A DNA stretch of 44,712 bases from Candidatus Micrarchaeota archaeon (GTDB lineage Archaea > Micrarchaeota > Micrarchaeia > CAILAH01). The first letter of the stretch is position 1, and each line of letters starts with the position of its first letter. The translations under genes and the position numbers were made by a program. Of this stretch, positions 405 through 25,661 are shown piece by piece. The stretch lies in assembly GCA_964401875.1 (NCBI GenBank), contig CAYOAB010000001.1:1-44712 (forward strand), read 5' to 3'. The notes beneath the pieces were generated by a model. The model had not been told where the DNA came from, ran no database searches, and saw only the letters and a list, made by a program, of their open reading frames with translations.

Positions 405-556
405 GCGGATATAGTATAGCCTGGTAGTACATGGCCTTGCCAACACTGCGGAAGGGGGAGTACCCCCTTCCCCGAGTGATCTGCCCCAACCCCCCATGCG
501 GTGGCTTGAGGTATTGTGAAAAGGCTAAAGCTCGGGTTCAAATCCCGATATCCGCA
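405..556 (+). tRNA. tRNA-Gly(GCC) with ~79-nt intron at canonical 37/38 position
   Basis: Cloverleaf folded by hand. Acceptor is GCGGATA/TATCCGC and the D-arm is GTAT-AGCCTGGTA-GTAC. The anticodon stem is TGGCC (432-436)/GGCTA (523-527) and the loop is TTGCCAA, giving anticodon GCC. The variable loop is AAGC, the T-arm is TCGGG-TTCAAAT-CCCGA and the discriminator is A556. No CCA is encoded. Mature length is 73 nt after removing 443-521. Confidence 0.8.
443..521 (+). other. tRNA-Gly intron (GC-rich, hairpin-containing)
   Basis: This segment separates anticodon-loop A37 from A38/GGCTA; the boundary is ambiguous by 1 nt. It contains the hairpin GGAAGGGGG-AGTA-CCCCCTTCC (450-471). It is homologous to the start of the T-loop insertions at 1120 and 1455 (ACTGCGG...CCGAGT). 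Confidence 0.7.
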
Positions 557-559
557 TAT

Positions 560-618
560 AAGGGGCGCATCCGCCCCCTTTAAGACCCCCGGTATTTTCG
601 CCTCCGTGAGGCGAAAAT
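560..618 (+). other. two strong GC-rich stem-loops 3' of tRNA-Gly, followed by a T-run
   Basis: The first is GGGGCG-CATC-CGCCCC (562-577). The second is ATTTTCGCCTC-CGT-GAGGCGAAAAT (594-618). TATTTATTTT follows. Function is unknown; it may be a processing or termination signal, or another member of the hairpin-module family. Confidence 0.45.
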
Positions 619-710
619 GTGAAATATTTATTTTGAGAGAACACGGAAAAGAAACTAATTATTTTTGAAAATAAATATAGACTAATTATAAGTTCAAAGA
701 ATTAGAAATA

Positions 711-775
711 ACTTCGACCTCTGGTCTAATTTTGGGATTGAACCCTTTTACGCCAAGACCTATGCAGTTGTAATT
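711..775 (+). repeat. 65-nt leader repeat, copy A (upstream of 3'-half unit 2)
   Basis: ACTTCGACCTCTGGTCTAATTTTGGGATTGAACCCTTTTACGCCAAGACCTATGCAGTTGTAATT is near-identical to 1294-1358, with one T/G difference. An AT-rich TATA-like sequence (AAATAAATATAG / TAATTATAAG, 671-692) lies upstream. Confidence 0.8.
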
Positions 776-799
776 TGGACTTGTCGGAAAAGGGTCAAA

Positions 800-984
800 G
801 GCTAAAGCTCGGGTTCAAATATTGATTTTCGAAGAAAAGCAATATGTCTGTTTTCCAAAGGAAAACGAACATGCCATTCGCTTATAGCGAATAAGCATGC
901 CATTTGAAAATCAAATGAACATCCCGATATCCGCATTTGCGAAGCAAATGAGGAGGCCGTAAACAAAGTTTACGAGCATCCGCA
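800..984 (+). ncRNA. tRNA-Gly 3'-half unit 2, with a T-loop insertion and a candidate acceptor-strand insertion; no 5' half in cis
   Basis: Exon-like pieces are GGCTAAAGCTCGGGTTCAAAT (800-820) and TCCCGATA(TCCGCA) (922-935), with a second TCCGCA at 979-984 followed by CTT plus a T-run. The ~100-nt insertion (821-921) has ends that can pair: TGATTTTC 823-830 with GAAAATCA 906-913, and exon TTCA 814-817 with TGAA 916-919. Confidence 0.5.
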
Positions 985-1098
985 CTTACTAATTTTATTT
1001 TGTAAAAATATTATTAATTATAAAAATGGTCAGAGGGTCATTAGGGGGTTAAGGGGGAGCATCCCCCTTCCCGTCCTGCAGGGGCGGAACCCTGCAAA

Positions 1099-1271
1099 GG
1101 CTAAAGCTCGGGTTCAAATATACTGCGGGAGGGGGAAACCCCCTCCCCCGAGTATCTGTCTATTCGGCAAATCCGAATGACATGCTACAAACGTTCGCGT
1201 TTGTGAGCATCTGCCCCTACCCCCTTTGGAGGTATGCAGTTGTGCTTATATTGAAATTCCCGATATCCGCA
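1099..1271 (+). ncRNA. tRNA-Gly 3'-half unit 3, with a ~138-nt T-loop insertion; no 5' half in cis
   Basis: GGCTAAAGCTCGGGTTCAAAT (1099-1119) and TCCCGATATCCGCA (1258-1271) match the tRNA-Gly exon 2 sequence exactly. TTCAAATAT (1113-1121) can pair with ATATTGAA (1248-1255). A TATA-like TTATAAAAA (1019-1027) lies upstream, and CTTGTTTTT follows the unit. Confidence 0.5.
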
Positions 1272-1293
1272 CTTGTTTTTCGTTTTATAATAT

Positions 1294-1358
1294 ACTTCGA
1301 CCTCTGGTCGAATTTTGGGATTGAACCCTTTTACGCCAAGACCTATGCAGTTGTAATT
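1294..1358 (+). repeat. 65-nt leader repeat, copy B (upstream of 3'-half unit 4)
   Basis: Near-identical to 711-775. Here it is separated from the shared GGACTTGTCGGAAAAGGGTCAAAGGCTA segment by an extra 52-nt insertion (1359-1410) that is absent from unit 2. Confidence 0.8.
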
Positions 1359-1433
1359 CCACTTTTTGCAAGGCAATAAGGGGTGCCATTTGGCGAAGCC
1401 GAATAAGCATGGACTTGTCGGAAAAGGGTCAAA

Positions 1434-1710
1434 GGCTAAAGCTCGGGTTCAAATATACTGCGGGAGGGGGAAACCCCCTCCCCCGAGTATCTGTCTATTC
1501 GGCAAATCCGAATGACATGCCACAAACGTTCGCGTTTGTGAGCATCTGCCCCTACCCCCTTTGGAGGTAGGCAGTTGTGCTTATATTGAAATTCCCGATA
1601 TGTTTTATGCGAAGCATAAAATATGTCTATTTTCCTTTGGAAAATGATCATGCCATTCGGCTTCGCCGAATTAACATGCCGTAAATACAAAGTATTTACG
1701 AGCATCCGCA
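1434..1710 (+). ncRNA. tRNA-Gly 3'-half unit 4, with a T-loop insertion and an acceptor-3'-strand insertion; no 5' half in cis
   Basis: Exon pieces are GGCTAAAGCTCGGGTTCAAAT (1434-1454), TCCCGATA (1593-1600) and TCCGCA (1705-1710). Joined, they reproduce the tRNA-Gly 3' half exactly. The acceptor strand is unambiguously interrupted after CCCGATA by 104 nt (1601-1704). Confidence 0.55.
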
Positions 1711-1743
1711 CTTATTTTTATATTTTACGAATGAAATAAACAT

Positions 1744-2166
1744 ATGAAAAACTTGGCCTTTTTTGGATTATATGAAAATCTCTTCATAGTATTAAAAGAA
1801 GAACAAGGGGAAGAAATGGCCCTTAACATCTTTAGAAAAGTTATGGAGAAAGGATTGAAAACAACATATGATAAAATGGGATTTGAAAAAGGTAATGTTA
1901 ATGATTTTGTTAGGGTTTTAACAGAAAGAGATAATAGTGTTGGGCTAAGAGTAGAATTTCCGGAAATTACAGAAAATAAAATAGTGTACCAATTTTATGA
2001 TGATCCATTTCCAGGGTTAAAAGGGAGAGTTGAACATGAGAAATTGGATGATACTTTTATCTCGTTTAAAATTAAACATATTTTGGGAAATGAATGGAAA
2101 TATAAAACAACTAAACATGCCTGGGATGGAAATGAATACACAGAATATGTAATCACACGCATTTAG
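1744..2166 (+). CDS. hypothetical protein (140 aa)
   Basis: Clean ORF with ordinary composition and an ATG start after an AT-rich promoter-like region. No family recognised. Its 3' end overlaps the convergent topA by 14 nt. Confidence 0.6.
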   Translation: MKNLAFFGLYENLFIVLKEEQGEEMALNIFRKVMEKGLKTTYDKMGFEKGNVNDFVRVLTERDNSVGLRVEFPEITENKIVYQFYDDPFPGLKGRVEHEKLDDTFISFKIKHILGNEWKYKTTKHAWDGNEYTEYVITRI

Positions 2167-4156
2167 GATTGGCACATTTGACAACTTTTCTTTTGCTTAA
2201 AATGTAAGTCATTATGGGCCCGCCGCACTTTGGACATTTCTCAACAAACGTGGCCTTCTTGATTGTGGAAGGAAGAGGGTATGCGTTTTTACAATTAGGG
2301 TAATTGGAACAACCTATGAATATTCTTTTATCCCTTGTTGGCCTTACAATTAAGTTACCAGTTTTACATAAATTACAAGGCATAACATAATTTTCCATTC
2401 TTTCACTTTGGTAATATGCAGTTCTTAACTCTTTACCAATGTTATCACTATTCTTTTTGAAATCGTCAATTATTTTCAATATTATTTTCTTGGCATCGTT
2501 AACTACATTTTCCTCTTTCTCTTTATTTTCTTGTATCTTCTCAACTTTCTCTTCAAATTCACGTGTTAAGTTTTCATCTAAAATATCTTTACAATACTTT
2601 GAAAGAGTTTCATGAACGGCCATACCTAATAAACTAACTTCAATACTTTTAGATTTAACATATTCACGTTGGAATAAAATATCAATAATTGTTGCACGTG
2701 TTGCCTTAGTACCTAAGTTATACTTTTCAAGTTCCTTAATTAGGGAAGTTGCAGTGTAACGTTTAGGTGGTTGAGTTTTCTTTTCCTCTTTACTTAACTT
2801 GTCAACAGTTATTTCTTCTTTTTCTTTTAACTTTGGAAGTGTTTGTTCATCAGCTGAATAATATTTACCATAAAGTTCAATCCATCCTGGAGTTAAAACA
2901 ACAATACCTTTTCCAATGTACTTTTCATTACCCAATTTCAAAACAGCTTTAGTAGATTGTTTAACTGCTGGGTCACCGAAACAAGCAAGGAACCTGCGCA
3001 CGATTAAATCATATAACTTCTTTTCTCTTTCACCTACATTTACTTGTATACCTGTTGGGTGAATTGCTGGGTGTGCCGGGTCTGATTTCTTACCATTGTT
3101 AGGTTTATACTTATTATTTTGAATTAAGAAATTGGCTTCCTTTGAGTATAAATGATTGTTTGATAACTTTTGAATTATAGATTTCAAATCAATTGAGGGG
3201 GGATACTGTTGTGAACTTGTACGCGGGTAACTTATCATTGAACTTTCATAAAGAGTTTGCGTTAATGCTAAAACATCTTTAGGTGCAAACCTGTGCACCC
3301 TGTACGCTTCAATCTGTAATGATGTTAAATCAAATGGAACTGGTGGTGCCACTTTAAATTCATTAACTTGTAATGATTCAACTTTACCTTTCTTATCAGA
3401 ATTTTTTAATGCAGTTTCTGCTTCTTTTTCATCCCAAAACTTTTCCTTCTCATGTACAAATTGTACTTTTTTATATTCTGCAAAAAGTTGCCAATAAGGT
3501 TTTGAAACGAACTTTTGAATTTCCTTTTCCCTTTTAACTAAAATGTCAAGAGAAGGTCCTTGCACACGTCCAATACTTAAATTTTTTCTTAAACCTGCAT
3601 TACGTGCACATTGACTTAACGCTCTGCTTATGTTTATACCCCAAAACCAATCTAACATGTGCCTCGTTTCACCTGCTATGGCATTACTATAATCAAGTTC
3701 AGTCATGTTTTCATATGCTGAAACAATATCTGATTTAGTTAATGCAGAGAATTTCATTCTCATACCCGTATCAGAACCTGCGGCAAAACGTATAGCATTG
3801 TAACCTATAAGAGAACCTTCAACATCATAATCGCACGCTGAAACGAACATGTCACAATCATCTGAAAGTTTAGAAATTAAATCAATGTAATCTTTAGTGT
3901 ACGCTGCTTGTTTGTTTGATTGGTATGCGGGAACCCATTCAATGTCAAAAACAGGAATTGCATAACCTTTACTTTTTTGTTCAAGTGAATATATGTGCCC
4001 TACTGCACTTACCACAATTAATTTATCATTTCCGTAAGTTGTTTCATAATAAGAAATTCCTTTTATATTTTTTCTTTTAACGTTATCCCCTAAAAAAGTT
4101 GCTATTTTTTCAGCCACTTTTGGTTTCTCTGCAATAATCATTATGGATTTGTTCAC
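2153..4156 (-). CDS. topA: type IA DNA topoisomerase (Topo I/III-like) with C-terminal zinc ribbons
   Basis: N-terminal Toprim domain (MIIAEKPKVA..., acidic cluster ACDYDVEGSLIG). Active-site Tyr motif ISYPRTSSQ. C-terminal Cys4 ribbons: CNLCKTG...CSNYPNC and CPKCGG...CANPKC. Confidence 0.9.
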   Translation of the reverse strand: MNKSIMIIAEKPKVAEKIATFLGDNVKRKNIKGISYYETTYGNDKLIVVSAVGHIYSLEQKSKGYAIPVFDIEWVPAYQSNKQAAYTKDYIDLISKLSDDCDMFVSACDYDVEGSLIGYNAIRFAAGSDTGMRMKFSALTKSDIVSAYENMTELDYSNAIAGETRHMLDWFWGINISRALSQCARNAGLRKNLSIGRVQGPSLDILVKREKEIQKFVSKPYWQLFAEYKKVQFVHEKEKFWDEKEAETALKNSDKKGKVESLQVNEFKVAPPVPFDLTSLQIEAYRVHRFAPKDVLALTQTLYESSMISYPRTSSQQYPPSIDLKSIIQKLSNNHLYSKEANFLIQNNKYKPNNGKKSDPAHPAIHPTGIQVNVGEREKKLYDLIVRRFLACFGDPAVKQSTKAVLKLGNEKYIGKGIVVLTPGWIELYGKYYSADEQTLPKLKEKEEITVDKLSKEEKKTQPPKRYTATSLIKELEKYNLGTKATRATIIDILFQREYVKSKSIEVSLLGMAVHETLSKYCKDILDENLTREFEEKVEKIQENKEKEENVVNDAKKIILKIIDDFKKNSDNIGKELRTAYYQSERMENYVMPCNLCKTGNLIVRPTRDKRIFIGCSNYPNCKNAYPLPSTIKKATFVEKCPKCGGPIMTYILSKRKVVKCANPKCV

Positions 4157-4208
4157 AAAGTTATTGAAAAGGGGAATTATTTAAATTTTCATGTTTTAAG
4201 AGAAAAAT

Positions 4209-4529
4209 ATGTTTCCAGGAAATCCAAGACAAATGCAACAAATGCTTAAACAGATGGGAATCAAATCCCGTGAGATTGATGCTAATAAAGTTATTATAGA
4301 AGGTAAAGATGGTACTAATATTATAATAGAACAACCTTCAATAACTGAAATGGACATGAAAGGCGAAAAGAATTTTACAATTGCGGGTAAAGTTAGAGAA
4401 GAAACAGCAATAAATGAAGAAGATGTTAGTTTAATTATGGAAGCAACAAATGTTAAAAGAGAAGAGGCAATTAAAGCACTTAAAGAAGAAGGAGATGTCG
4501 CAAGTGCCATAGTAAAATTAAAAGAATAA
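4209..4529 (+). CDS. nac: nascent polypeptide-associated complex protein (archaeal NAC, NAC + UBA domains)
   Basis: N-terminus NPRQMQQMLKQMGIK with the typical NAC beta-barrel region, and a C-terminal UBA-like EDVSLIMEATNVKREEAIKALKEEGDVASAIVKL. Confidence 0.9.
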   Translation: MFPGNPRQMQQMLKQMGIKSREIDANKVIIEGKDGTNIIIEQPSITEMDMKGEKNFTIAGKVREETAINEEDVSLIMEATNVKREEAIKALKEEGDVASAIVKLKE

Positions 4530-13493: not shown

Positions 13494-13931
13494 TCATCTC
13501 CTTATCATGTCTAAAAAATCTTTTGGATCCTCAAAAGAAAAATATACAGACGCAAAACGTATATATGCCACCTTATCTATCTTCTTAAGTTTCTCCATGA
13601 CCATTAAACCTATACGCGAACTATCCACTACTTCATTACCTTCTTGCATTAAAGAAAGCCTAATATCTTCTGCCATTTCTTTTATTTTTTCAAAACAGAT
13701 TGGTCTTTTTTCACATGCAGTTTGTAATCCTTTTACTATTTTTTCAGAATCAAATCGTTGTAAACTCCCATTCTTCTTCTTAACCATCATTTCAAGAGTT
13801 TCAATGTATTCATAAGTAGTAAATCTCTTGCCACAACCAGCACATTCCTTTCTTCTTCTTGTGCGATTGTCTTGAGATTCACGAGTTTCAAGAACACTTA
13901 ATTCCTCTGAATTACAAAATGGACATTTCAT
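13494..13931 (-). CDS. nrdR: transcriptional repressor NrdR (zinc ribbon + ATP-cone)
   Basis: MKCPFCNS...CAGCGKRFTTYE zinc ribbon followed by an ATP-cone. I prefer ATG at 13931 over the ORF-track start at 13940, which is a GTG and lies inside NrdR box 1. Confidence 0.85.
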   Translation of the reverse strand: MKCPFCNSEELSVLETRESQDNRTRRRKECAGCGKRFTTYEYIETLEMMVKKKNGSLQRFDSEKIVKGLQTACEKRPICFEKIKEMAEDIRLSLMQEGNEVVDSSRIGLMVMEKLKKIDKVAYIRFASVYFSFEDPKDFLDMIRR

Positions 13932-13936
13932 TAAAA

Positions 13937-13952
13937 ACACTCCTAGTAGTGT
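13937..13952 (-). promoter_or_regulatory. candidate NrdR box 1 (ACACTCCTAGTAGTGT)
   Basis: 16-bp ACAC-N8-GTGT element, 6 nt upstream of the nrdR ATG. It resembles the bacterial NrdR-box consensus (approx. acaCwAtATaTwGtgt). Confidence 0.55.
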
Positions 13953-17177: not shown

Positions 17178-17264
17178 TTTTAGGATATGCGAAGCAACCG
17201 AAAAAGGCCAATGTGTCTTTTTCCCTGGGATTTTTAGGATATGCGAAGCAACCGAAAAAGGCCA
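17178..17264 (+). repeat. 33-bp direct repeat x2 (TTTTAGGATATGCGAAGCAACCGAAAAAGGCCA) abutting tRNA-Thr
   Basis: Identical copies at 17178-17210 and 17232-17264, separated by the 21-nt ATGTGTCTTTTTCCCTGGGAT. The second copy ends exactly at tRNA-Thr position +1. Confidence 0.85.
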
Positions 17265-17338
17265 GCCTCAGTAACTCAGCACGGTAGAGTGCGTCCTTGG
17301 TAAGGACGAAGCCGTGGGTTCAAATCCCATCTGAGGCT
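17265..17338 (+). tRNA. tRNA-Thr(GGU), no intron
   Basis: Acceptor GCCTCAG/CTGAGGC. D-arm ACTC-AGCACGGTA-GAGT. Anticodon arm CGTCC-TTGGTAA-GGACG. Variable loop AAGCC. T-arm GTGGG-TTCAAAT-CCCAT. Discriminator T. 74 nt. Confidence 0.9.
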
Positions 17339-17355
17339 CTTTTTCTACATATATT

Positions 17356-18824: not shown

Positions 18825-19203
18825 TTTCAATAATTTCCTCTTTTGTTAATTCCTCACGTTCGGGAACCTTATCAGTTAAGGAAATATAACTTCTAGTATT
18901 AATTTTTGTTGGAACTAAATGAATGTGTAGATGAGGAAGAGAACGACCATTGATTGGGTTTATTGTGATTATGGGGTAATCTCCATATGTTTTCTTTATT
19001 ATTTCAGAAAAAATTTCAACTAAATCAAACATGTCTTTTGCTTCTTCTTGTGTTAAATCATTATATTTTTCAACATGTCTAAGAGGCATTACCATCAAGT
19101 GGCCTTTCTTTAGGGAATGTAAATTAATTGCAACCTGTGAATATTTAGTTTTATGAACTAATGTTTCTTGTTTTTCTAAATCATCGCAAAATGGACAATT
19201 CAC
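18796..19203 (-). CDS. HIT-family (histidine triad) nucleotide hydrolase/transferase
   Basis: Histidine triad HLHIHLVP and N-terminal CPFC. It overlaps the upstream HAD gene by 4 nt, suggesting an operon. Confidence 0.8.
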   Translation of the reverse strand: MNCPFCDDLEKQETLVHKTKYSQVAINLHSLKKGHLMVMPLRHVEKYNDLTQEEAKDMFDLVEIFSEIIKKTYGDYPIITINPINGRSLPHLHIHLVPTKINTRSYISLTDKVPEREELTKEEIIEIKNKINKFL

Positions 19204-20294
19204 ATAATAACCTCCTGTACCTTATAATAATCAATTAAATTATTATTTCTAATTGAAGCTACAATTAAATCCTTTCTAACTTTACGAGAATATTCTTTTA
19301 TTTTTTCTAAGTATTCCCAATTTAAATTTTCTGAAATAATCACAACATATTCACTTTGAGAATTTTTTGGCATCATGCCTTTTTCATGAACAAGAAATAA
19401 ATCTTCAGAAGGAACATAGTTTGAAACATGTATTTTATCTCTTAAATCCTTGAAAACCAAATATCTTTCTTTAAGAAATTTATCTTTGTTTACCTTTTTT
19501 AGTGCATCGGATTTGATTTTTTTAAGTTCAGTTAAATAAGCTGCTTGTAAAATGTCAACATAATATGAATTGTTTTTTGGATAACCTATACCTCTTCCCT
19601 TTAATTCATCAACTAAAGAACCTTCAATTTTATGTTCATATTTTCCTGAAATCCAATTAACAGTGTTAAGTATAAATAAAGGGTTTAAACAAACATAATC
19701 GGCATTAACCTCCCTTAACAAATCAGCACTAAAAGTGTTAACCACACCTATAGTAATCATGCCTGCTCTTTTACCTGAAATTACACCATTAGGAGAATCT
19801 TCAACCACTATACATTCTTCTTTAGGGACATTTAATTTTTTTCTTGCAGTTTCATAAGGAATAGGTGAAGGTTTACCTTCATTCACATCATTACTTGTTA
19901 TAACAAAATCAAAATAATTCTTAATATTACATCTTTCTAAAGTTAAATTAACAAGTGAGGAATGTCCTGAAGTTACAATAACTAAAGTATGTTCTTTTTT
20001 TAACTCTTTTAGTACTTTTTTGATGTTATCTAAAAGTTTAATTTTAGATTTTTTAAAATAATTAATTTTTTCTTGTAAAAAATCTTGAGAAGTAATATTC
20101 AAATTAAAAATCTTGATATATAAATCAAAAACATCCATTTGTCTTAAACCCGTTGTTTCAGTTAACTTGAAAGATCCTTTTTTTAATTCTTCTTTAAAGT
20201 CAATATTATATTTTTTAAGTATGAATTCATCTGCCTTATTATGTAAAAGTTCAGTGTCTGTCAAAGTTCCATCTAAATCAAATAAAATATACAT
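19200..20294 (-). CDS. HAD-superfamily hydrolase (subfamily IA, beta-PGM-like) fused to an uncharacterised ~160-aa C-terminal domain
   Basis: HAD motifs are FDLDGTLTDT (I), IVTSG (II), EGKPSP (III) and VVEDSPNGVISGKRAGM (IV). The C-terminal half was not recognised. Confidence 0.7.
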   Translation of the reverse strand: MYILFDLDGTLTDTELLHNKADEFILKKYNIDFKEELKKGSFKLTETTGLRQMDVFDLYIKIFNLNITSQDFLQEKINYFKKSKIKLLDNIKKVLKELKKEHTLVIVTSGHSSLVNLTLERCNIKNYFDFVITSNDVNEGKPSPIPYETARKKLNVPKEECIVVEDSPNGVISGKRAGMITIGVVNTFSADLLREVNADYVCLNPLFILNTVNWISGKYEHKIEGSLVDELKGRGIGYPKNNSYYVDILQAAYLTELKKIKSDALKKVNKDKFLKERYLVFKDLRDKIHVSNYVPSEDLFLVHEKGMMPKNSQSEYVVIISENLNWEYLEKIKEYSRKVRKDLIVASIRNNNLIDYYKVQEVIM

Positions 20295-21152: not shown

Positions 21153-24100
21153 ATGAGTGGAGATGGAGTTAATAGAACTAATGAAATACTTAATAAAAAG
21201 TTAGAATACTGGAAAGGAAAATTACTTGATATATCTCTAAAAAATAAACTTATAAATTTCAAAGAAAAATCTTCAGTCATACCTTTAATTATAAAAGAAG
21301 AAAATGAATTCCATAATATTTATGATTTGATTGTCAATAAAAATAAAAAATTATCATTAGCAATTAACTCTGAAAAAACTAATGTTTATAATGTAAACTT
21401 GTCGGAAAAGGAAGCTAAAAATAGGTTATATAACGTATATTTGAGTAGTAAAGAAAGTTTATCGGAACAAACAATCAACACTTTGTATATGACATTTGGT
21501 TTTTTAGAATATGAAGATTCTGAAACAAATACAAAAATTAAAGCTCCTTTAATTCTGGTGCCTATTAAAATTGAAAAAAGAAAGGAAATTGAAAAAGAAA
21601 AATTACCTTATGTAATATATTTCTTAGAAGATGATATACAAATTAACCCTGCTTTGAGACAAAAATTAATATACCAAAACAATTTAGACATAGGAGAAGA
21701 TTTTGAAACACTTGATTTATTTTTTGAAAAAATTCAAAAGGAAGTTGAAAAATATAATTGGAAAGTTACAAAAAATGAAATTTATTTTGGTATATTTTCA
21801 TTTCAAAAATTATCAATGTATCAAGATTTGAGTAGGAATAAAGAACTTATAATTAATCATCCAATCATTAAAGCAATAGCAGGAGAAAAATATGAATATG
21901 ATTATACTAAAATAATTCACGGTAAAGAAATTGATAAAATTAATATGAAAGAGAATCTGTATGTTTTAGATGCAGATTCAAGCCAAAAGGAAGCAATAAT
22001 TGCCGCTAAGAATGGTTTAAGTTTTGTTTTACAAGGTCCACCAGGAACTGGAAAAAGTCAAACTATAGCCAACATCATAGCTCAACAATTAGCAGAAGGT
22101 AAAAAGGTTTTGTTCGTTAGTGAAAAATCTGCTGCACTTGAGGTAGTTAAAAAAAGATTAAATGAAACGGGGATAGGTCATTATTTACTTGAATTACATA
22201 ACGCAAATATTAAAGGTAAAAAATGGGTTCTCGAACAATTTGATAGAGCATTAAGTGATAATAAAATATATGAAATTGAAAAGAATATTATAGAAACACT
22301 TGAAGAAAATAGAAAAATACTTAGAGAATATGGAGAAGAATTAATTGAAAGTAAAATTGAGTTAAATGCTTATGAAGTCTTAGGAATACTTTCAAAACAT
22401 AGTAATATTAAATTTGCAGATATGGAAATTAACTTGAAAACTGATTATGAATATTATAGAAAAAATATTGTGGTTTTTGAAGAACTTGATTTTTATGAAA
22501 AACAAATAGAACAGTATAATACTAATTTGTTAAGGTATATTAATAACAAATTGTACAATGAATTTACAGATATTAAAAGAGAAAGATTAAAGGAAAATTG
22601 TGAATCTGCTCTCGAAAATATTGAATATATGAAAATAGACCTCGATAATATTGAAAAGAATTTGGGACTATATTTTACATGTGTTGAAGATTTTAGAACT
22701 TTAAACAAAAAAAGAGATTTATTATTGGCTAAACCTTCTAATAACTTAACACGTGAATTTTTTACATATGAGGGAGGAACAGAAATATTTGATAACTTTG
22801 ATAAAAAAACTGAGGAAATAAAAGCCTTGAAAATATATTTTGAAAAAAAATATAATATAGAATTATTTAAAAGTGAAATGTTTAAAGAAATATATTCAAA
22901 CATTTCTAATGCAAGTTCATTTTTCCTTTTTAGAATAGTGGATAGTAATTATATAAGATCTGAAAAAATAATTAAAAAGAATTACAAGGGAGATAAAAAA
23001 CATTTCAATTATGAGAACATTTTACAAGATTTAAAACAATATAAAACTTGTGAAAAATTAGAGGTAGAAATTAAAGAAGAAGAAAAGAGAATTAAAGAAA
23101 TGTTAAATATTAAGGAAGTTAATGTAAAGGAAATAAAAGAAATAATAAGTTGGATAAAAGAACTTAAAAAAGAAAATATAATTAATTCAAGATTGATTGA
23201 AACACTTGTAAAAAATACTGATGATTATAAAAAAGAATTTGATAAAACAGTAAAAAGTGTGGACAACTTCATGAATTATTATCTTAAAATAACAGATTTC
23301 CTTGAAGTTCAAGCTGTTGAAAAATATTTCTTGAGAGCATCATGGAATAAATTAGATGAACGTTTTAAAAACATAGAAGAAAATTCAAATGAAATATCAA
23401 AATGGGTTGAATTTAAGAACACTTTAGATAAGTTAGATAGTGATTTAAAATTAATTTTTGAAAAGGCAACGAAAGATGAAAAGAGAAATTATAAAGTAAG
23501 TGAATTGTTTGAAAAATTGTTTATGCAAGAATATTTGTTCAGAATGAGATTAGATTTAGTTAAAAAGAGTAGAGAATATTTAGATATGGTTCATAAAAAA
23601 TTCGTGAACGCGGATAAAGAACATATGTATTATTCAAGAAATTCTATAATCAAACAAATTGAAACTAAAAAACCTAAAATAAGTTTAAGCTCTGGAAGTT
23701 CTGAAATTGGAATTTTAAAAAGAGAAATTGCTAAAAATAGAAGTCATATGCCAATGAGAAAATTATTTAATGAAATTAAAAATTTGGCTTTCTTAATTAA
23801 ACCTTGTTTTATGATGAGTCCATTATCAGTAGCTAAATATGTAGATCCAGAGGTTATGGATTTTGATACTGTGATATTTGATGAAGCATCACAAATTATG
23901 GTGGAAGATTCTATTAGTTCAATATATAGAGGAAAACAAGTTATTGTAGTGGGAGACTCAAAACAATTACCGCCAACAATGTTCTTTAAAGTAAATGAAG
24001 ACCTTGATTTAGAAGAAGATTTAGAACAAGCAACAAGTATATTAGATGAAATTGGACCTTACTTACCTAATCACTTATTAAAGTGGCATTATAGAAGTAA

Positions 24101-25661
24101 AAATGAATCTTTAATCAACTTTTCAAATTATAATTTTTATAATAACTCACTTGTAACTTTCCCAAATAATAAAGTTAATGATTTCGCAATTGATTATGAA
24201 TATGTGGATAATGGTGTTTATGATAGAGGAAAAAGTAGGTATAATAAAAATGAAGCAAGAAGAGTAATTGAATTAATTAAAAAACATTATGACACTAATC
24301 CAAAAAAGAGTTTAGGAATTATTGCATTTAGTATGGCACAACAAAAATGTATACATGAAGAATTAGAAATGTTTTTATTTGAAAATCCAATTTATTTAAG
24401 ATACATTAATTTAGATGATACCATTGATGGTTTCTTCGTTAAAAATCTTGAAACAGTACAAGGAGATGAAAGAGATTCAATTATAATTAGTGTTGGTTAT
24501 GGCAGGGATATGGAAGGAAACTTTTCACTTAATTTTGGTCCCTTAAATAAAGAAGGGGGAGAAAAAAGATTAAATGTTGCAATTACAAGGGCAAAAGAAA
24601 AAGTTACTATTGTTTCTTCAATTAATCCAAGTGAAATTAATGAGGGTAGAACTAAATCAGAAGGATTAATTTTACTTAGAAAATATATGGAATATGCAAA
24701 TAAAAAAGAATCTGAAATAATTAAAAGACATAATTTTGAATCTGAATTACAAAAAATAATGTATGAAAAATTAACTTCTTATGGTTTTAAGATTGATAAA
24801 AATGTAGGTAATTCTGATTATAATATAGATATTGCAATTAAAGATTTTGTAAATCCAAACGTTTACAAATTGGCATTACAACTTGATGGTAAAATGTATA
24901 TTAATTCAAAGGTCACTAGAGACAGGGATAGAATTCATTCAGAAATATTAGAAAATATGGGATGGAAAGTTCATAGAATTTGGTCATATGATTGGATGTT
25001 AAACCCTGAAAAGGAAATTGAAAAAATACTTGAACTTATGGATAATAAAATTAAACTTGAAGATATGAAAAAGGAAAATAAAAAACAATCCATTGAAATT
25101 AAAGATGAGGATTTATCAATTGCAATAAAAGAATATCCTAATATAGATTACAAAAAGTTAGATAAAGAAACATATTATGAATTTGATTTCTTTTCAAAAA
25201 TAAAAGAAGTTATCAAGAATGAATCTCCTATAACTAAAACACTTTTAATGAAAAGAATATTTGATATATATGGAGTTAAAGAAGGAGTAAAAAGTAAAAA
25301 AAGATTTGATGAAATAATTACAACTCATGTACCCTCAACAGAAATATTTATGGAAAAAGAAACATTATGGTTTGAAAAGCCTAAATTCTTTTATAATTTA
25401 AGAAAAAATGTTAAAGGTGAAAGAGACATAAATGAAATGACAGAACCTGAAATTAGAATTGGTATTTTATTAATAGTAGATACTGCAATAAGTATATCAA
25501 AAGAAGACATTCCAAAAGATGTCGCTAATTTATTTAATGTACCTAAAATGTCCGCTAAATTTAAAGCTAAATGTAAAATATTAATAGATGAATTAATAGA
25601 GAAAAAATATTTAATAAATGGAGAAAAAATTACTCTTAATAAAGAAAAAGAAATAGCATAA
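21153..25661 (+). CDS. large SF1 (Upf1/Dna2-like) helicase: DUF4011-type N-terminus, AAA_11/AAA_12 core, Vsr/DUF559-like nuclease-fold module, DUF3320-like C-terminus
   Basis: N-terminal LLDISLKNKLINFK (DUF4011-like). Walker A is GPPGTGKSQ, motif II is VIFDEASQI and motif III is VVGDSKQLPPT. Further motifs are YRSKNESLINFSN, TVQGDERDSIIIS and RLNVAITRAKEKV. These are followed by a PD-(D/E)xK-like IDIAIKD...LALQLDGKMY...HRIWSYDW segment. Confidence 0.8.
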   Translation: MSGDGVNRTNEILNKKLEYWKGKLLDISLKNKLINFKEKSSVIPLIIKEENEFHNIYDLIVNKNKKLSLAINSEKTNVYNVNLSEKEAKNRLYNVYLSSKESLSEQTINTLYMTFGFLEYEDSETNTKIKAPLILVPIKIEKRKEIEKEKLPYVIYFLEDDIQINPALRQKLIYQNNLDIGEDFETLDLFFEKIQKEVEKYNWKVTKNEIYFGIFSFQKLSMYQDLSRNKELIINHPIIKAIAGEKYEYDYTKIIHGKEIDKINMKENLYVLDADSSQKEAIIAAKNGLSFVLQGPPGTGKSQTIANIIAQQLAEGKKVLFVSEKSAALEVVKKRLNETGIGHYLLELHNANIKGKKWVLEQFDRALSDNKIYEIEKNIIETLEENRKILREYGEELIESKIELNAYEVLGILSKHSNIKFADMEINLKTDYEYYRKNIVVFEELDFYEKQIEQYNTNLLRYINNKLYNEFTDIKRERLKENCESALENIEYMKIDLDNIEKNLGLYFTCVEDFRTLNKKRDLLLAKPSNNLTREFFTYEGGTEIFDNFDKKTEEIKALKIYFEKKYNIELFKSEMFKEIYSNISNASSFFLFRIVDSNYIRSEKIIKKNYKGDKKHFNYENILQDLKQYKTCEKLEVEIKEEEKRIKEMLNIKEVNVKEIKEIISWIKELKKENIINSRLIETLVKNTDDYKKEFDKTVKSVDNFMNYYLKITDFLEVQAVEKYFLRASWNKLDERFKNIEENSNEISKWVEFKNTLDKLDSDLKLIFEKATKDEKRNYKVSELFEKLFMQEYLFRMRLDLVKKSREYLDMVHKKFVNADKEHMYYSRNSIIKQIETKKPKISLSSGSSEIGILKREIAKNRSHMPMRKLFNEIKNLAFLIKPCFMMSPLSVAKYVDPEVMDFDTVIFDEASQIMVEDSISSIYRGKQVIVVGDSKQLPPTMFFKVNEDLDLEEDLEQATSILDEIGPYLPNHLLKWHYRSKNESLINFSNYNFYNNSLVTFPNNKVNDFAIDYEYVDNGVYDRGKSRYNKNEARRVIELIKKHYDTNPKKSLGIIAFSMAQQKCIHEELEMFLFENPIYLRYINLDDTIDGFFVKNLETVQGDERDSIIISVGYGRDMEGNFSLNFGPLNKEGGEKRLNVAITRAKEKVTIVSSINPSEINEGRTKSEGLILLRKYMEYANKKESEIIKRHNFESELQKIMYEKLTSYGFKIDKNVGNSDYNIDIAIKDFVNPNVYKLALQLDGKMYINSKVTRDRDRIHSEILENMGWKVHRIWSYDWMLNPEKEIEKILELMDNKIKLEDMKKENKKQSIEIKDEDLSIAIKEYPNIDYKKLDKETYYEFDFFSKIKEVIKNESPITKTLLMKRIFDIYGVKEGVKSKKRFDEIITTHVPSTEIFMEKETLWFEKPKFFYNLRKNVKGERDINEMTEPEIRIGILLIVDTAISISKEDIPKDVANLFNVPKMSAKFKAKCKILIDELIEKKYLINGEKITLNKEKEIA

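Follow-up and report, generated by a model that had tools for sequence, protein, structure and literature searches.

Are the sequences that interrupt tandem copies of a tRNA-Gly(GCC) 3' half in the genome of a Candidatus Micrarchaeota archaeon introns that occupy non-canonical sites, and in what kind of gene do they reside? The locus lies near the start of a 44,712-nt stretch of DNA (contig CAYOAB010000001.1 of assembly GCA_964401875.1; hereafter, the window), and an initial annotation had read insertions in both the T loop and the 3' strand of the acceptor stem as introns that would need a splicing endonuclease of relaxed specificity. On balance, and with modest confidence, we favour the reading that this is a hypervariable, recombination-prone tRNA-Gly(GCC) locus, in which introns of a known type at position 59/60 and palindromic modules reside in relic gene copies. 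The interesting signal is the turnover and mosaicism of the locus rather than a new intron position.

Anatomy of the tRNA-Gly(GCC) array

A 21-nt core of the tRNA 3' half, GGCTAAAGCTCGGGTTCAAAT, occurs in four exact copies (at 523, 800, 1099 and 1434), where zero are expected by chance. CCCGATA is present at 544, 923, 1259 and 1594, and TCCGCA at 551, 930, 979, 1266 and 1705; the sequence facts that the initial annotation stated all hold. The 5' half is represented once, by the 16-mer GCGGATATAGTATAGC at 405, and no second 5' half was detected in the 44.7-kb window. Similarly, the only tRNA match obtained with Rfam in this region covers 405-556 (49.9 bits; about 80 nt are inserted behind the anticodon). 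In total, unit 1 (405-556) is a complete tRNA-Gly(GCC) gene with a 79-nt intron at 37/38, and units 2 to 4 are 5'-truncated copies, i.e. 3' halves behind non-tRNA leaders. Because units 2 to 4 lack a 5' half, removal of their insertions cannot give a tRNA in cis. The initial annotation was silent on this point, which changes what the insertions can mean.

All parts of the array lie on the forward strand. In unit 1, the 5' exon (405-442) comprises the 5' strand of the acceptor stem, the D arm, the 5' strand of the anticodon stem and the anticodon loop through A37. It is followed by the intron (443-521), a relaxed motif of what we call the alpha family, and by an uninterrupted 3' exon from A38 to A73 (522-556), supported by the Rfam, core and motif matches. 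Unit 2 has a non-tRNA leader of type beta (700-798), formed by a hairpin and then a long imperfect hairpin and ending in AA^A before GGCTA (the caret marks the predicted junction); this leader is 93% identical to that of unit 4 (repeat families D3 and I3). Behind it lie an exon piece from A38 to A59 (799-819, core match), a 102-nt T-loop insertion of the gamma family (820-921), an exon piece from T60 to A73 that completes the 3' end (922-935), and a further segment (936-984) consisting of a 43-nt two-hairpin palindrome (936-978) and a second TCCGCA (979-984).

The intron-like leader of unit 3 (type delta, 1028-1097, repeat family D4) contains the hairpin AAGGGGGAGCATCCCCCTT, which is related to the alpha intron, and, directly before AA^A GGCTA, the hairpin TGCAGGG-GCGGAA-CCCTGCA, which covaries with TGCAACG-GCGGAA-CGTTGCA in the related contigs L006 and L011. 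The exon pieces of unit 3, from A38 to A59 (1098-1118, core match) and from T60 to A73 (1258-1271), flank a 139-nt T-loop insertion of the alpha family (1119-1257). Unit 4 has a beta-type leader (1294-1432), which is set apart from that of unit 2 by an additional 51-nt hairpin insertion (1359-1409), followed by an exon piece from A38 to A59 (1433-1453, core match), a 139-nt T-loop insertion (1454-1592), an exon piece from T60 to A67 (1593-1600), a 104-nt acceptor-strand insertion (1601-1704; at 67/68 or 66/67, the register being ambiguous by one A) and an exon piece from T68 to A73 (1705-1710), after which a T-rich tract begins. A 172-nt repeat that holds the T-loop insertion is 99% identical between units 3 and 4 (family D1).

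Every truncated copy follows one plan, in which an intron-like leader with AA^A at its end precedes the 3' half and a T-rich tail closes the unit; moreover, each unit has an AT-rich, TATA-like tract upstream. The exons of units 2 to 4, 102 nt in all, carry no change in the window. ARAGORN found none of the tRNA-Gly units, either in the window or in related loci, Tandem Repeats Finder reported nothing in the array, and Rfam at permissive E-values returned only tRNA and no ribozyme, small RNA (sRNA) or other family in the insertions. We also considered that the unit 2/4 leader might be a diverged anticodon arm (TCT/TCG); this was rejected, as position 33 is G and the stem has only 2 bp.

In the trailer of unit 1 (557-640), two G/C-rich hairpins, AGGGGCG-CATC-CGCCCCT and TATTTTCGCCTC-CGTG-AGGCGAAAATG, precede a T-rich tract. 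Contig L006 keeps this trailer, with compensatory changes in the second hairpin (CGGTCC-CGCG-GACCG).

Insertions in the T loop, the anticodon loop and the acceptor strand

In units 2, 3 and 4, the T loop is broken after A59 (819, 1118 and 1453) and resumes at T60 (922, 1258 and 1593). Joining 819 to 922, 1118 to 1258 and 1453 to 1593 gives TCGGG-TTCAAAT-CCCGA, the same sequence as in the uninterrupted unit 1; the predicted 59/60 splice junction is ...GGGTTCAAA joined to TCCCGATA. The junctions were scanned for bulge-helix-bulge (BHB) motifs under the archaeal rule, which asks for an outer, a central (4 bp) and an inner helix and for two bulges of 3 nt, each cut behind its second nucleotide; this register places the canonical intron at 37/38, as expected. 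Units 3 and 4 (junctions 1118/1257 and 1453/1592) read TCGGG.TTCA[AA^T]ATA ... TAT.TGAA[AT^T]CCCGA, which by the pairing rule is a strict hBHBh' motif with an outer helix (h, the T stem) of 5 bp, a central helix (H) of 4 bp and an inner helix (h') of 3 bp. Unit 2 (819/921) has the same 5-bp T-stem outer helix and central TTCA/TGAA, a 3' bulge [CA^T], and a 12-bp inner helix that begins past one A.A mismatch (822-830 with 906-914 and beyond). When the introns were shuffled and the exons kept, 0.06% of trials regained the unit 3 motif, which is shared with unit 4, and 0.17% regained that of unit 2; because the introns of units 2 and 3 are unrelated in sequence, the joint chance of the two motifs is about 1e-6. 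The pairing across the T-loop cuts that the initial annotation had described is, therefore, present and above chance.

In folds of the precursor with the 5' half supplied, the T stem formed with a probability of 0.98-0.99 for four of its five pairs (0.17 for the U-A pair), and the central helix with a probability of 0.81-0.94 in unit 3 and 0.67-0.90 in a shorter version in contig L010. Because excision would restore the 7-nt loop TTCAAAT exactly as it stands in unit 1, and the geometry is that of a splicing-endonuclease substrate, we conclude that the T-loop insertions are in all probability genuine endonuclease introns at 59/60. In the mechanism that we propose, the T stem would act as the outer helix and TTCA would pair with TGAA at the 3' end of the intron as the 4-bp central helix; the two cuts would fall in the flanking 3-nt bulge and loop, and ligation would restore TTCAAAT. 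All three host copies in the window lack a 5' half. In L010, the same 59/60 intron apparently follows a 37/38 intron of the full-gene type, whose 5' exon lies beyond the contig end; that 37/38 intron ends in GCAA, a perfect partner of the 5' exon TTGC.

We also inspected the introns for C/D-box or H/ACA sRNAs and rejected this possibility, as no RUGAUGA/CUGA boxes were seen and the hairpins are only 20-35 nt. A G/C-rich hairpin of the 59/60 intron (1127-1147 in the window; around GGGAGGGGGTTTCCCCCTCCC in L008) has the loop AAA in the window and L010 and TTT in L008, a difference that suggests an inverted palindrome centre more than it does three point changes.

In unit 1, the 37/38 intron forms a relaxed hBH motif that lacks an inner helix: the 5-bp anticodon stem is the outer helix, TTGC pairs with GTGA in the central helix, and the bulges, [CA^A] and [AA^A], are correctly placed; in addition, it holds an inner strict BHB at 444/507. 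This intron aligns with the 59/60 intron of units 3 and 4 over about 50 nt with a score that none of 500 shuffles reached, and we assign the two introns to one family. An alpha-family intron at both 37/38 and 59/60 fits the published idea of BHB introns moving between positions. Contig L007 is of the same species (flanks 99.4-99.8% identical to those in the window), yet its 37/38 site is occupied by an unrelated intron of 86 nt, with a central helix TTGC/GTAA of 4 bp and almost no inner helix. Because the 37/38 introns of both the window and L007 are relaxed motifs, it is plausible that the lineage relies on such motifs and has an enzyme of relaxed specificity. To this extent, and in view of a homolog named Micrarchaeota and of the 59/60 introns of ARMAN-2 (below), the initial annotation's proposal of a relaxed-specificity endonuclease of the kind described for ARMAN-type archaea is plausible; it does not reach the acceptor position, at which no motif was found.

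In contigs L001 and L002, nt 1-44 correspond to 438-481 of the window, and the unit 1 intron differs upstream of TGCCCCAACC, where these contigs have a different hairpin, GTACGTATTACGTAC-GAGTG; the assemblies are otherwise 99-100% identical, and both contigs end there. The breakpoint coincides with the site of a nested insertion in units 3 and 4 (below).

The acceptor-strand insertions gave a different picture. The 104 nt of unit 4 lie between CCCGATA (to 1600) and TCCGCA (from 1705), and the 43 nt of unit 2 lie behind a complete 3' end and before the second TCCGCA, with the imperfect direct repeat CGATATCCGCA ... CGAGCATCCGCA; versions of 42-51 nt are present in L006, L008, L010, L011, L013 and L016. 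Their common architecture is a T-rich hairpin A directly after CCCGATA, a hairpin B, and a short tail before TCCGCA (GAGCA in unit 4, AAACA or GTGGA in other versions). In unit 4, hairpin A pairs exon G64-A67 with TGTC of the insertion. The shape of hairpin B is kept by compensatory changes (GTAAATAC/GTATTTAC, GTAAAC/GTTTAC, GTAAATGC/GCATTTAC and ATCAAC/GTTGAT), and the middle of the unit 4 insertion matches a part of the unit 2 intron at 77% identity (family D5).

The initial annotation had extended the intron reading, including pairing across the cut, to this position. Scans of the acceptor junctions in five variants and in both registers returned no 4-5-bp central helix with 0-4-nt bulges, and no BHB, hBH or HBh' motif, while three of three positive controls gave candidates; neither the intron reading nor pairing across the cut is supported at this position. 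In the predicted minimum free energy (MFE) fold, both acceptor junctions lie inside continuous helices, and the last A of the insertion replaces A67, such that an acceptor stem of 6-7 bp forms around a two-hairpin bulge. We conclude that the acceptor insertions are most likely not endonuclease introns but DNA-level insertions or recombination scars.

Turnover of the array and alternative explanations

Contigs L001 (JGI) and L002 (ENA) are colinear with 482-4529 of the window, without gaps and at 99.2-99.9% identity, and three further contigs cover parts of the array region at 99.4-100%. Because independent assemblies reproduce the array gaplessly, it is not an assembly artefact. Collapsed or mis-joined metagenomic repeats might be suspected where the contigs of relatives break inside the array and differ in unit order; however, the exon stretches that the copies share (21-27 nt) are shorter than assembler k-mers, so that the junctions need real spanning reads, and we regard this explanation as extremely improbable.

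Among related contigs, identical segments stand beside divergent ones. The 102-nt intron of unit 2 is identical at 102 of 102 positions in L011 and L016, while the DNA of the adjoining ORF140 is 83% and 93% identical, respectively; the unit that bears this intron in L011 has different alleles of both its leader and its acceptor insertion. The 104-nt acceptor insertion is identical at 104 of 104 positions in five loci, the ORF140 genes of which are 93-94% identical. Recent exchange or mobility can explain this pattern and uniform purifying selection cannot. Moreover, the order and number of units vary between contigs, as does the gene content beside the tRNA, and relatives contain partial units that start exactly at T54 (TTCAAATCCCGATA...) behind two different upstream contexts. 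Downstream copies are also damaged: about 30 nt of exon are lost from the last unit of L016, L013 has TCCACA in place of TCCGCA, and the T loop of L008 is damaged, lesions at odds with purifying selection on split 3' halves.

Introns and insertions alike consist of 20-35-nt hairpins, which come from a few families and are strung together in chains. A 55-nt palindromic insertion (about 1159-1213), flanked by GAGTATCTG / GAGCATCTG, is nested in the intron of units 3 and 4 and is missing from unit 1 as well as from L008, L010 and L016. Other modules are flanked by imperfect direct repeats such as CATGCC/CATGCC and CGATAT(CCGCA)/CGAGCAT(CCGCA), the repeats measuring 5-11 nt overall. Like miniature palindromic insertion elements (of MITE, REP or PATE type), the modules have hairpin bodies and imperfect direct repeats, and their sites are filled in some strains and units and empty in others. 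One module family recurs at a second tRNA gene: two 100% identical copies of a 33-nt module, TTTTAGGATATGCGAAGCAACCGAAAAAGGCCA, lie 54 nt apart on the forward strand (17178-17264), the second abutting position +1 of tRNA-Thr(GGU) (17265-17339). In reverse complement, this module makes up the core both of the tRNA-Gly intron of L007/L010 type and of a trailer segment in L008 and L016 (33/34 identity). The tRNA-Thr leader module may be a promoter cassette or a mobile module. A TATA-like sequence, TTTTTAGG, lies about 32 nt upstream of the tRNA-Thr start. The very stable GAA mini-hairpin GCGAAGC occurs six times in the window (at 11, 939, 1393 and 1609, and within 17178-17264), compared with about 0.3 expected per strand at 28% G+C; five of the six are in tRNA-associated hairpin modules.

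Altogether, these observations are consistent with our favoured reading of a hypervariable locus. Under this reading, the acceptor and nested insertions would be short palindromic modules inserted, or left by recombination, at the DNA level, the truncated copies would be relics of recombination or integration at the tRNA gene, and such relics would tolerate insertions because they are not needed. Several observations weigh against it. The flawless exons of units 2 to 4 could reflect function rather than recent origin or gene conversion. The central helix of unit 2 has a probability of only about 0.25 in the fold, and MFE folding does not form the 3-bp inner helix of units 3 and 4; because h and H are well supported in units 3 and 4 and h' is not predicted, the safest description of the 59/60 motif is a robust hBH that may be a strict hBHBh'. 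Across this hairpin-rich 1.3 kb, the scanner gives 153 BHB-like motifs; the presence of a motif alone is thus weak, and only positions that restore the exon count. In contig L006, the copy that carries the acceptor insertion has a trailer of the unit 1 type and is followed by no other unit; if that copy were the only tRNA-Gly(GCC) gene, the insertion would have to be removable or tolerated. Outside the tRNA-Gly array, related modules are present in the window only at the tRNA-Thr leader, unlike typical dispersed miniature inverted-repeat transposable elements (MITEs), and the 44.7 kb yielded neither a transposase nor an integrase. The nested insertions were also considered as mini BHB introns (strict motifs at 1050/1074 and 875/901), but were not relied on because the scanner gives so many motifs, one of which (1587/1611) would delete an exon.

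The same data can be read in other ways. A mobile system of BHB introns and hairpin modules might target tRNA loci, moving between positions (37/38, 59/60, the acceptor strand and leaders) and between strains, with the tandem 3' halves as its integration products and, as a further possibility, the acceptor element as a new non-BHB intervening sequence that is removed or tolerated. We consider this conceivable though unlikely; if true, tRNA intron gain and gene fragmentation in archaea would have been caught in progress. A different view holds that all insertions are DNA-level debris, i.e. attachment-site (att) duplications from repeated integration of mobile elements into tRNA-Gly, later reduced by deletion to some hundreds of bases, together with MITE-like or repetitive extragenic palindrome-like sequences, the T-loop pairing being incidental. 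The anticodon-loop side and the T loop are classic integrase crossover sites in tRNA genes, and the tRNA 3' part is directly repeated from the anticodon-loop side or, in relatives, exactly from T54; the variable gene content adjoining the tRNA, the imperfect direct repeats flanking the insertions, and the gain of a tRNA fragment and an intron via a recombinase-encoding element in a Caldiarchaeum population (PMC3293823) point the same way. However, two unrelated T-loop insertions both restore the loop and both supply TGAA at the required distance, a coincidence with the small joint chance given above, and the same position and motif have been experimentally validated as introns in this phylum (PMC3239211). 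Moreover, the 160-240 nt between repeats have no coding capacity and contain no ORF, no integrase domain is encoded in the window, and four pattern scans of IMG/VR returned no virus, and no related viral contig, carrying array sequences. We regard this view as improbable.

It has also to be asked whether units 2 to 4 are functional split-tRNA genes, the 3' halves of which would be transcribed from their own AT-rich promoters, joined in trans to 5' halves elsewhere, for example those of other tRNA-Gly isoacceptors in which the acceptor strand is also GCGGATA, and afterwards freed of the 59/60 and acceptor insertions. The TATA-like tract and T-rich tail of each unit, the perfect exons in the window, the common AA^A GGCTA junction of all leaders and the covarying hairpin of the delta leader would fit, as would the shared 3' halves known in Nanoarchaeum and Caldivirga (PMC4033280) and the adjacent split halves of A. 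pernix that were once mistaken for a long intron (PMC3218864). By contrast, the only 5' half in the window belongs to unit 1, the leaders fold on themselves and offer no free complementary strand, and the partners before the splice site, GGTC and CTGC, mismatch the only known 5' exon TTGC, which the complete genes pair with GTGA, GTAA and GCAA. All units would, moreover, give the same 3' half, the downstream copies of L016, L013 and L008 carry disabling deletions or mutations, and unit number and order vary between strains. A split-gene function is, on these grounds, quite doubtful. Similarly, the acceptor insertion by itself could be a new functional intervening sequence, either removed by a non-BHB mechanism or tolerated as a two-hairpin bulge between 66 and 67. 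Five variants keep the two-hairpin plan and show compensatory changes in hairpin B, the final A can take the place of A67 and leave an acceptor stem of 6-7 bp, the L006 copy has no other units downstream, and the 104-nt version is 100% conserved where the adjoining gene is 93-94% identical. Nevertheless, the insertion never occurs in a copy with a visible 5' half, the complete genes of the window and L007 lack it, it has no known processing motif and no Rfam match, palindromes can stay complementary without selection, and the same modules reside in introns and leaders, where removal is not needed; we consider such a function very unlikely.

A 20-mer of the tRNA, TTCAAATCCCGATATCCGCA, is present in four phage contigs of IMG/VR (L019-L022) and was considered as an attachment site; it lies in bacterial-type tRNA-Leu(GAG) genes, and we rejected it as a coincidence. 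These contigs hold clusters of 11-25 tRNA genes, and the T loop and acceptor 3' strand of their tRNA-Leu(GAG) match tRNA-Gly over 20 nt.

Genomic context and known systems

The window is a fragment of an archaeal chromosome with 28% G+C that encodes GatD, NrdD and its activase, topoisomerase IA, TyrRS, AlaRS and ThiI; 391-1599 is one of its few G+C-rich islands (about 50% G+C). Because a homolog of the gene adjoining the array is named Candidatus Micrarchaeota by its source, a Micrarchaeota-like DPANN host is indicated, and the initial annotation's guess at an ARMAN-type host fits. The exon 21-mer had no match among the GTDB representative genomes, where ORF140 also has no relative, and a homolog search with the truncated upstream ORF returned nothing. 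Homologs of ORF140 at 62-68% identity are in other gene contexts with no adjoining tRNA-Gly (ARAGORN, run only on L012, gave none).

The only endonuclease-related sequence in the window is encoded by an ORF on the reverse strand (19200-20294; 364 aa), in which a HAD-IA phosphatase is fused to a C-terminal tRNA splicing endonuclease-like unit of about 140 residues; no catalytic EndA was found in the window. The endonuclease-like unit has weak matches to PF01974 (E=1e-4) and NF006795 (E=8e-8), the latter aligned to the N-terminal (structural) repeat of the model, and, judged by eye, it does not conserve the catalytic Tyr and His; it may be a structural subunit. Full-length homologs of the fusion were found only in close relatives (at least 71% identity), and PDB sequence searches gave HAD matches only.

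Three further ORFs were recorded. A large helicase-nuclease of 1502 aa (21153-25661, forward strand) combines DUF4011 with superfamily-1 helicase domains (AAA_11/AAA_12) and, at its C terminus, an MTES_1575/DUF559 nuclease domain. An NrdR-type repressor (13494-13940, reverse strand; zinc ribbon and ATP-cone) lies beside the anaerobic ribonucleotide reductase NrdD in this archaeal genome. Finally, a 91-aa ORF with a GTG start, antisense to unit 4 (1436-1711, reverse strand), crosses tRNA exon pieces and hairpin modules and, for this reason, is almost certainly spurious.

Several known systems resemble parts of the locus. Like att duplications left by integrases, a subject discussed in PMC3218864 and PMC4090602, the array repeats the tRNA 3' part from the anticodon-loop side or the T loop and has variable neighbours; unlike them, it has no integrated element or integrase between the repeats, it has intron-like leaders, and no matching virus or plasmid was found. 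Split and tri-split tRNA genes are known from Nanoarchaeum equitans, Caldivirga maquilingensis and Desulfurococcales (PMC3218864, PMC4033280), and share with units 2 to 4 stand-alone 3' halves from the 37/38 junction, a structured leader, and AT-rich and T-rich flanks of their own; however, units 2 to 4 have no partner 5' half or complementary trailer in the window, their leaders self-pair, and the copies are redundant and in some strains damaged. As to how the truncated copies arose, the closest published parallel is the tRNA-Thr locus of Caldiarchaeum, where alternative intron states and a partial tRNA copy beside an intact gene, seen in a natural population, have been attributed to integration and recombination (2012, PMC3293823). 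In that locus, there is one 5' fragment, separated by a 1.8-kb recombinase-encoding element, whereas here three 3' fragments lie in tandem 280-340 nt apart with no coding element.

The 59/60 introns themselves are of a kind already known in the phylum. Candidatus Micrarchaeum acidiphilum ARMAN-2 has 59/60 introns in tRNA-Cys and tRNA-Pro (Fujishima et al. 2011, PMC3239211), and its three-unit epsilon2 endonuclease cuts strict and hBH motifs and cleaves the 59/60 introns in vitro (PMC3239211). The two cases share the phylum-level lineage, the 59/60 position, the T stem as outer helix and a range from strict hBHBh' to relaxed hBH, and the canonical-position intron of the host is also relaxed. 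By contrast with the 13-nt tRNA-Cys intron assayed in ARMAN-2, the introns here are 102-139 nt, are built of chained hairpin modules with nested insertions, and reside in 5'-truncated copies and not in a complete gene; as to endonucleases, the window shows only the HAD-fused, endonuclease-like unit.

Two lessons for annotation follow from the locus: its complete gene escapes tRNA finders (ARAGORN detects no tRNA-Gly copy, and Rfam detects unit 1 alone), and intron-bearing fragments should not be counted as genes. More generally, the evidence on intron spread and gene splitting of archaeal tRNAs has so far been comparative (Thermoproteales), with one population case (Caldiarchaeum). It has been proposed that introns are gained at the DNA level and that the need for a BHB sets the sites that are permissible (2010 study; PMC4033280, PMC4090602). 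In that study, similar introns were in different tRNA species of one genome; here, one intron family is at 37/38 and 59/60 of copies of one tRNA, together with presence or absence at strain level, allele replacement, and identical introns in genomes that have diverged by about 17%. With one site that has alternative introns in the same species, nested insertion sites both filled and empty, and partial copies graded from intact to decaying, in host populations that recur in public metagenomes, the locus adds to these known cases a compact natural system.

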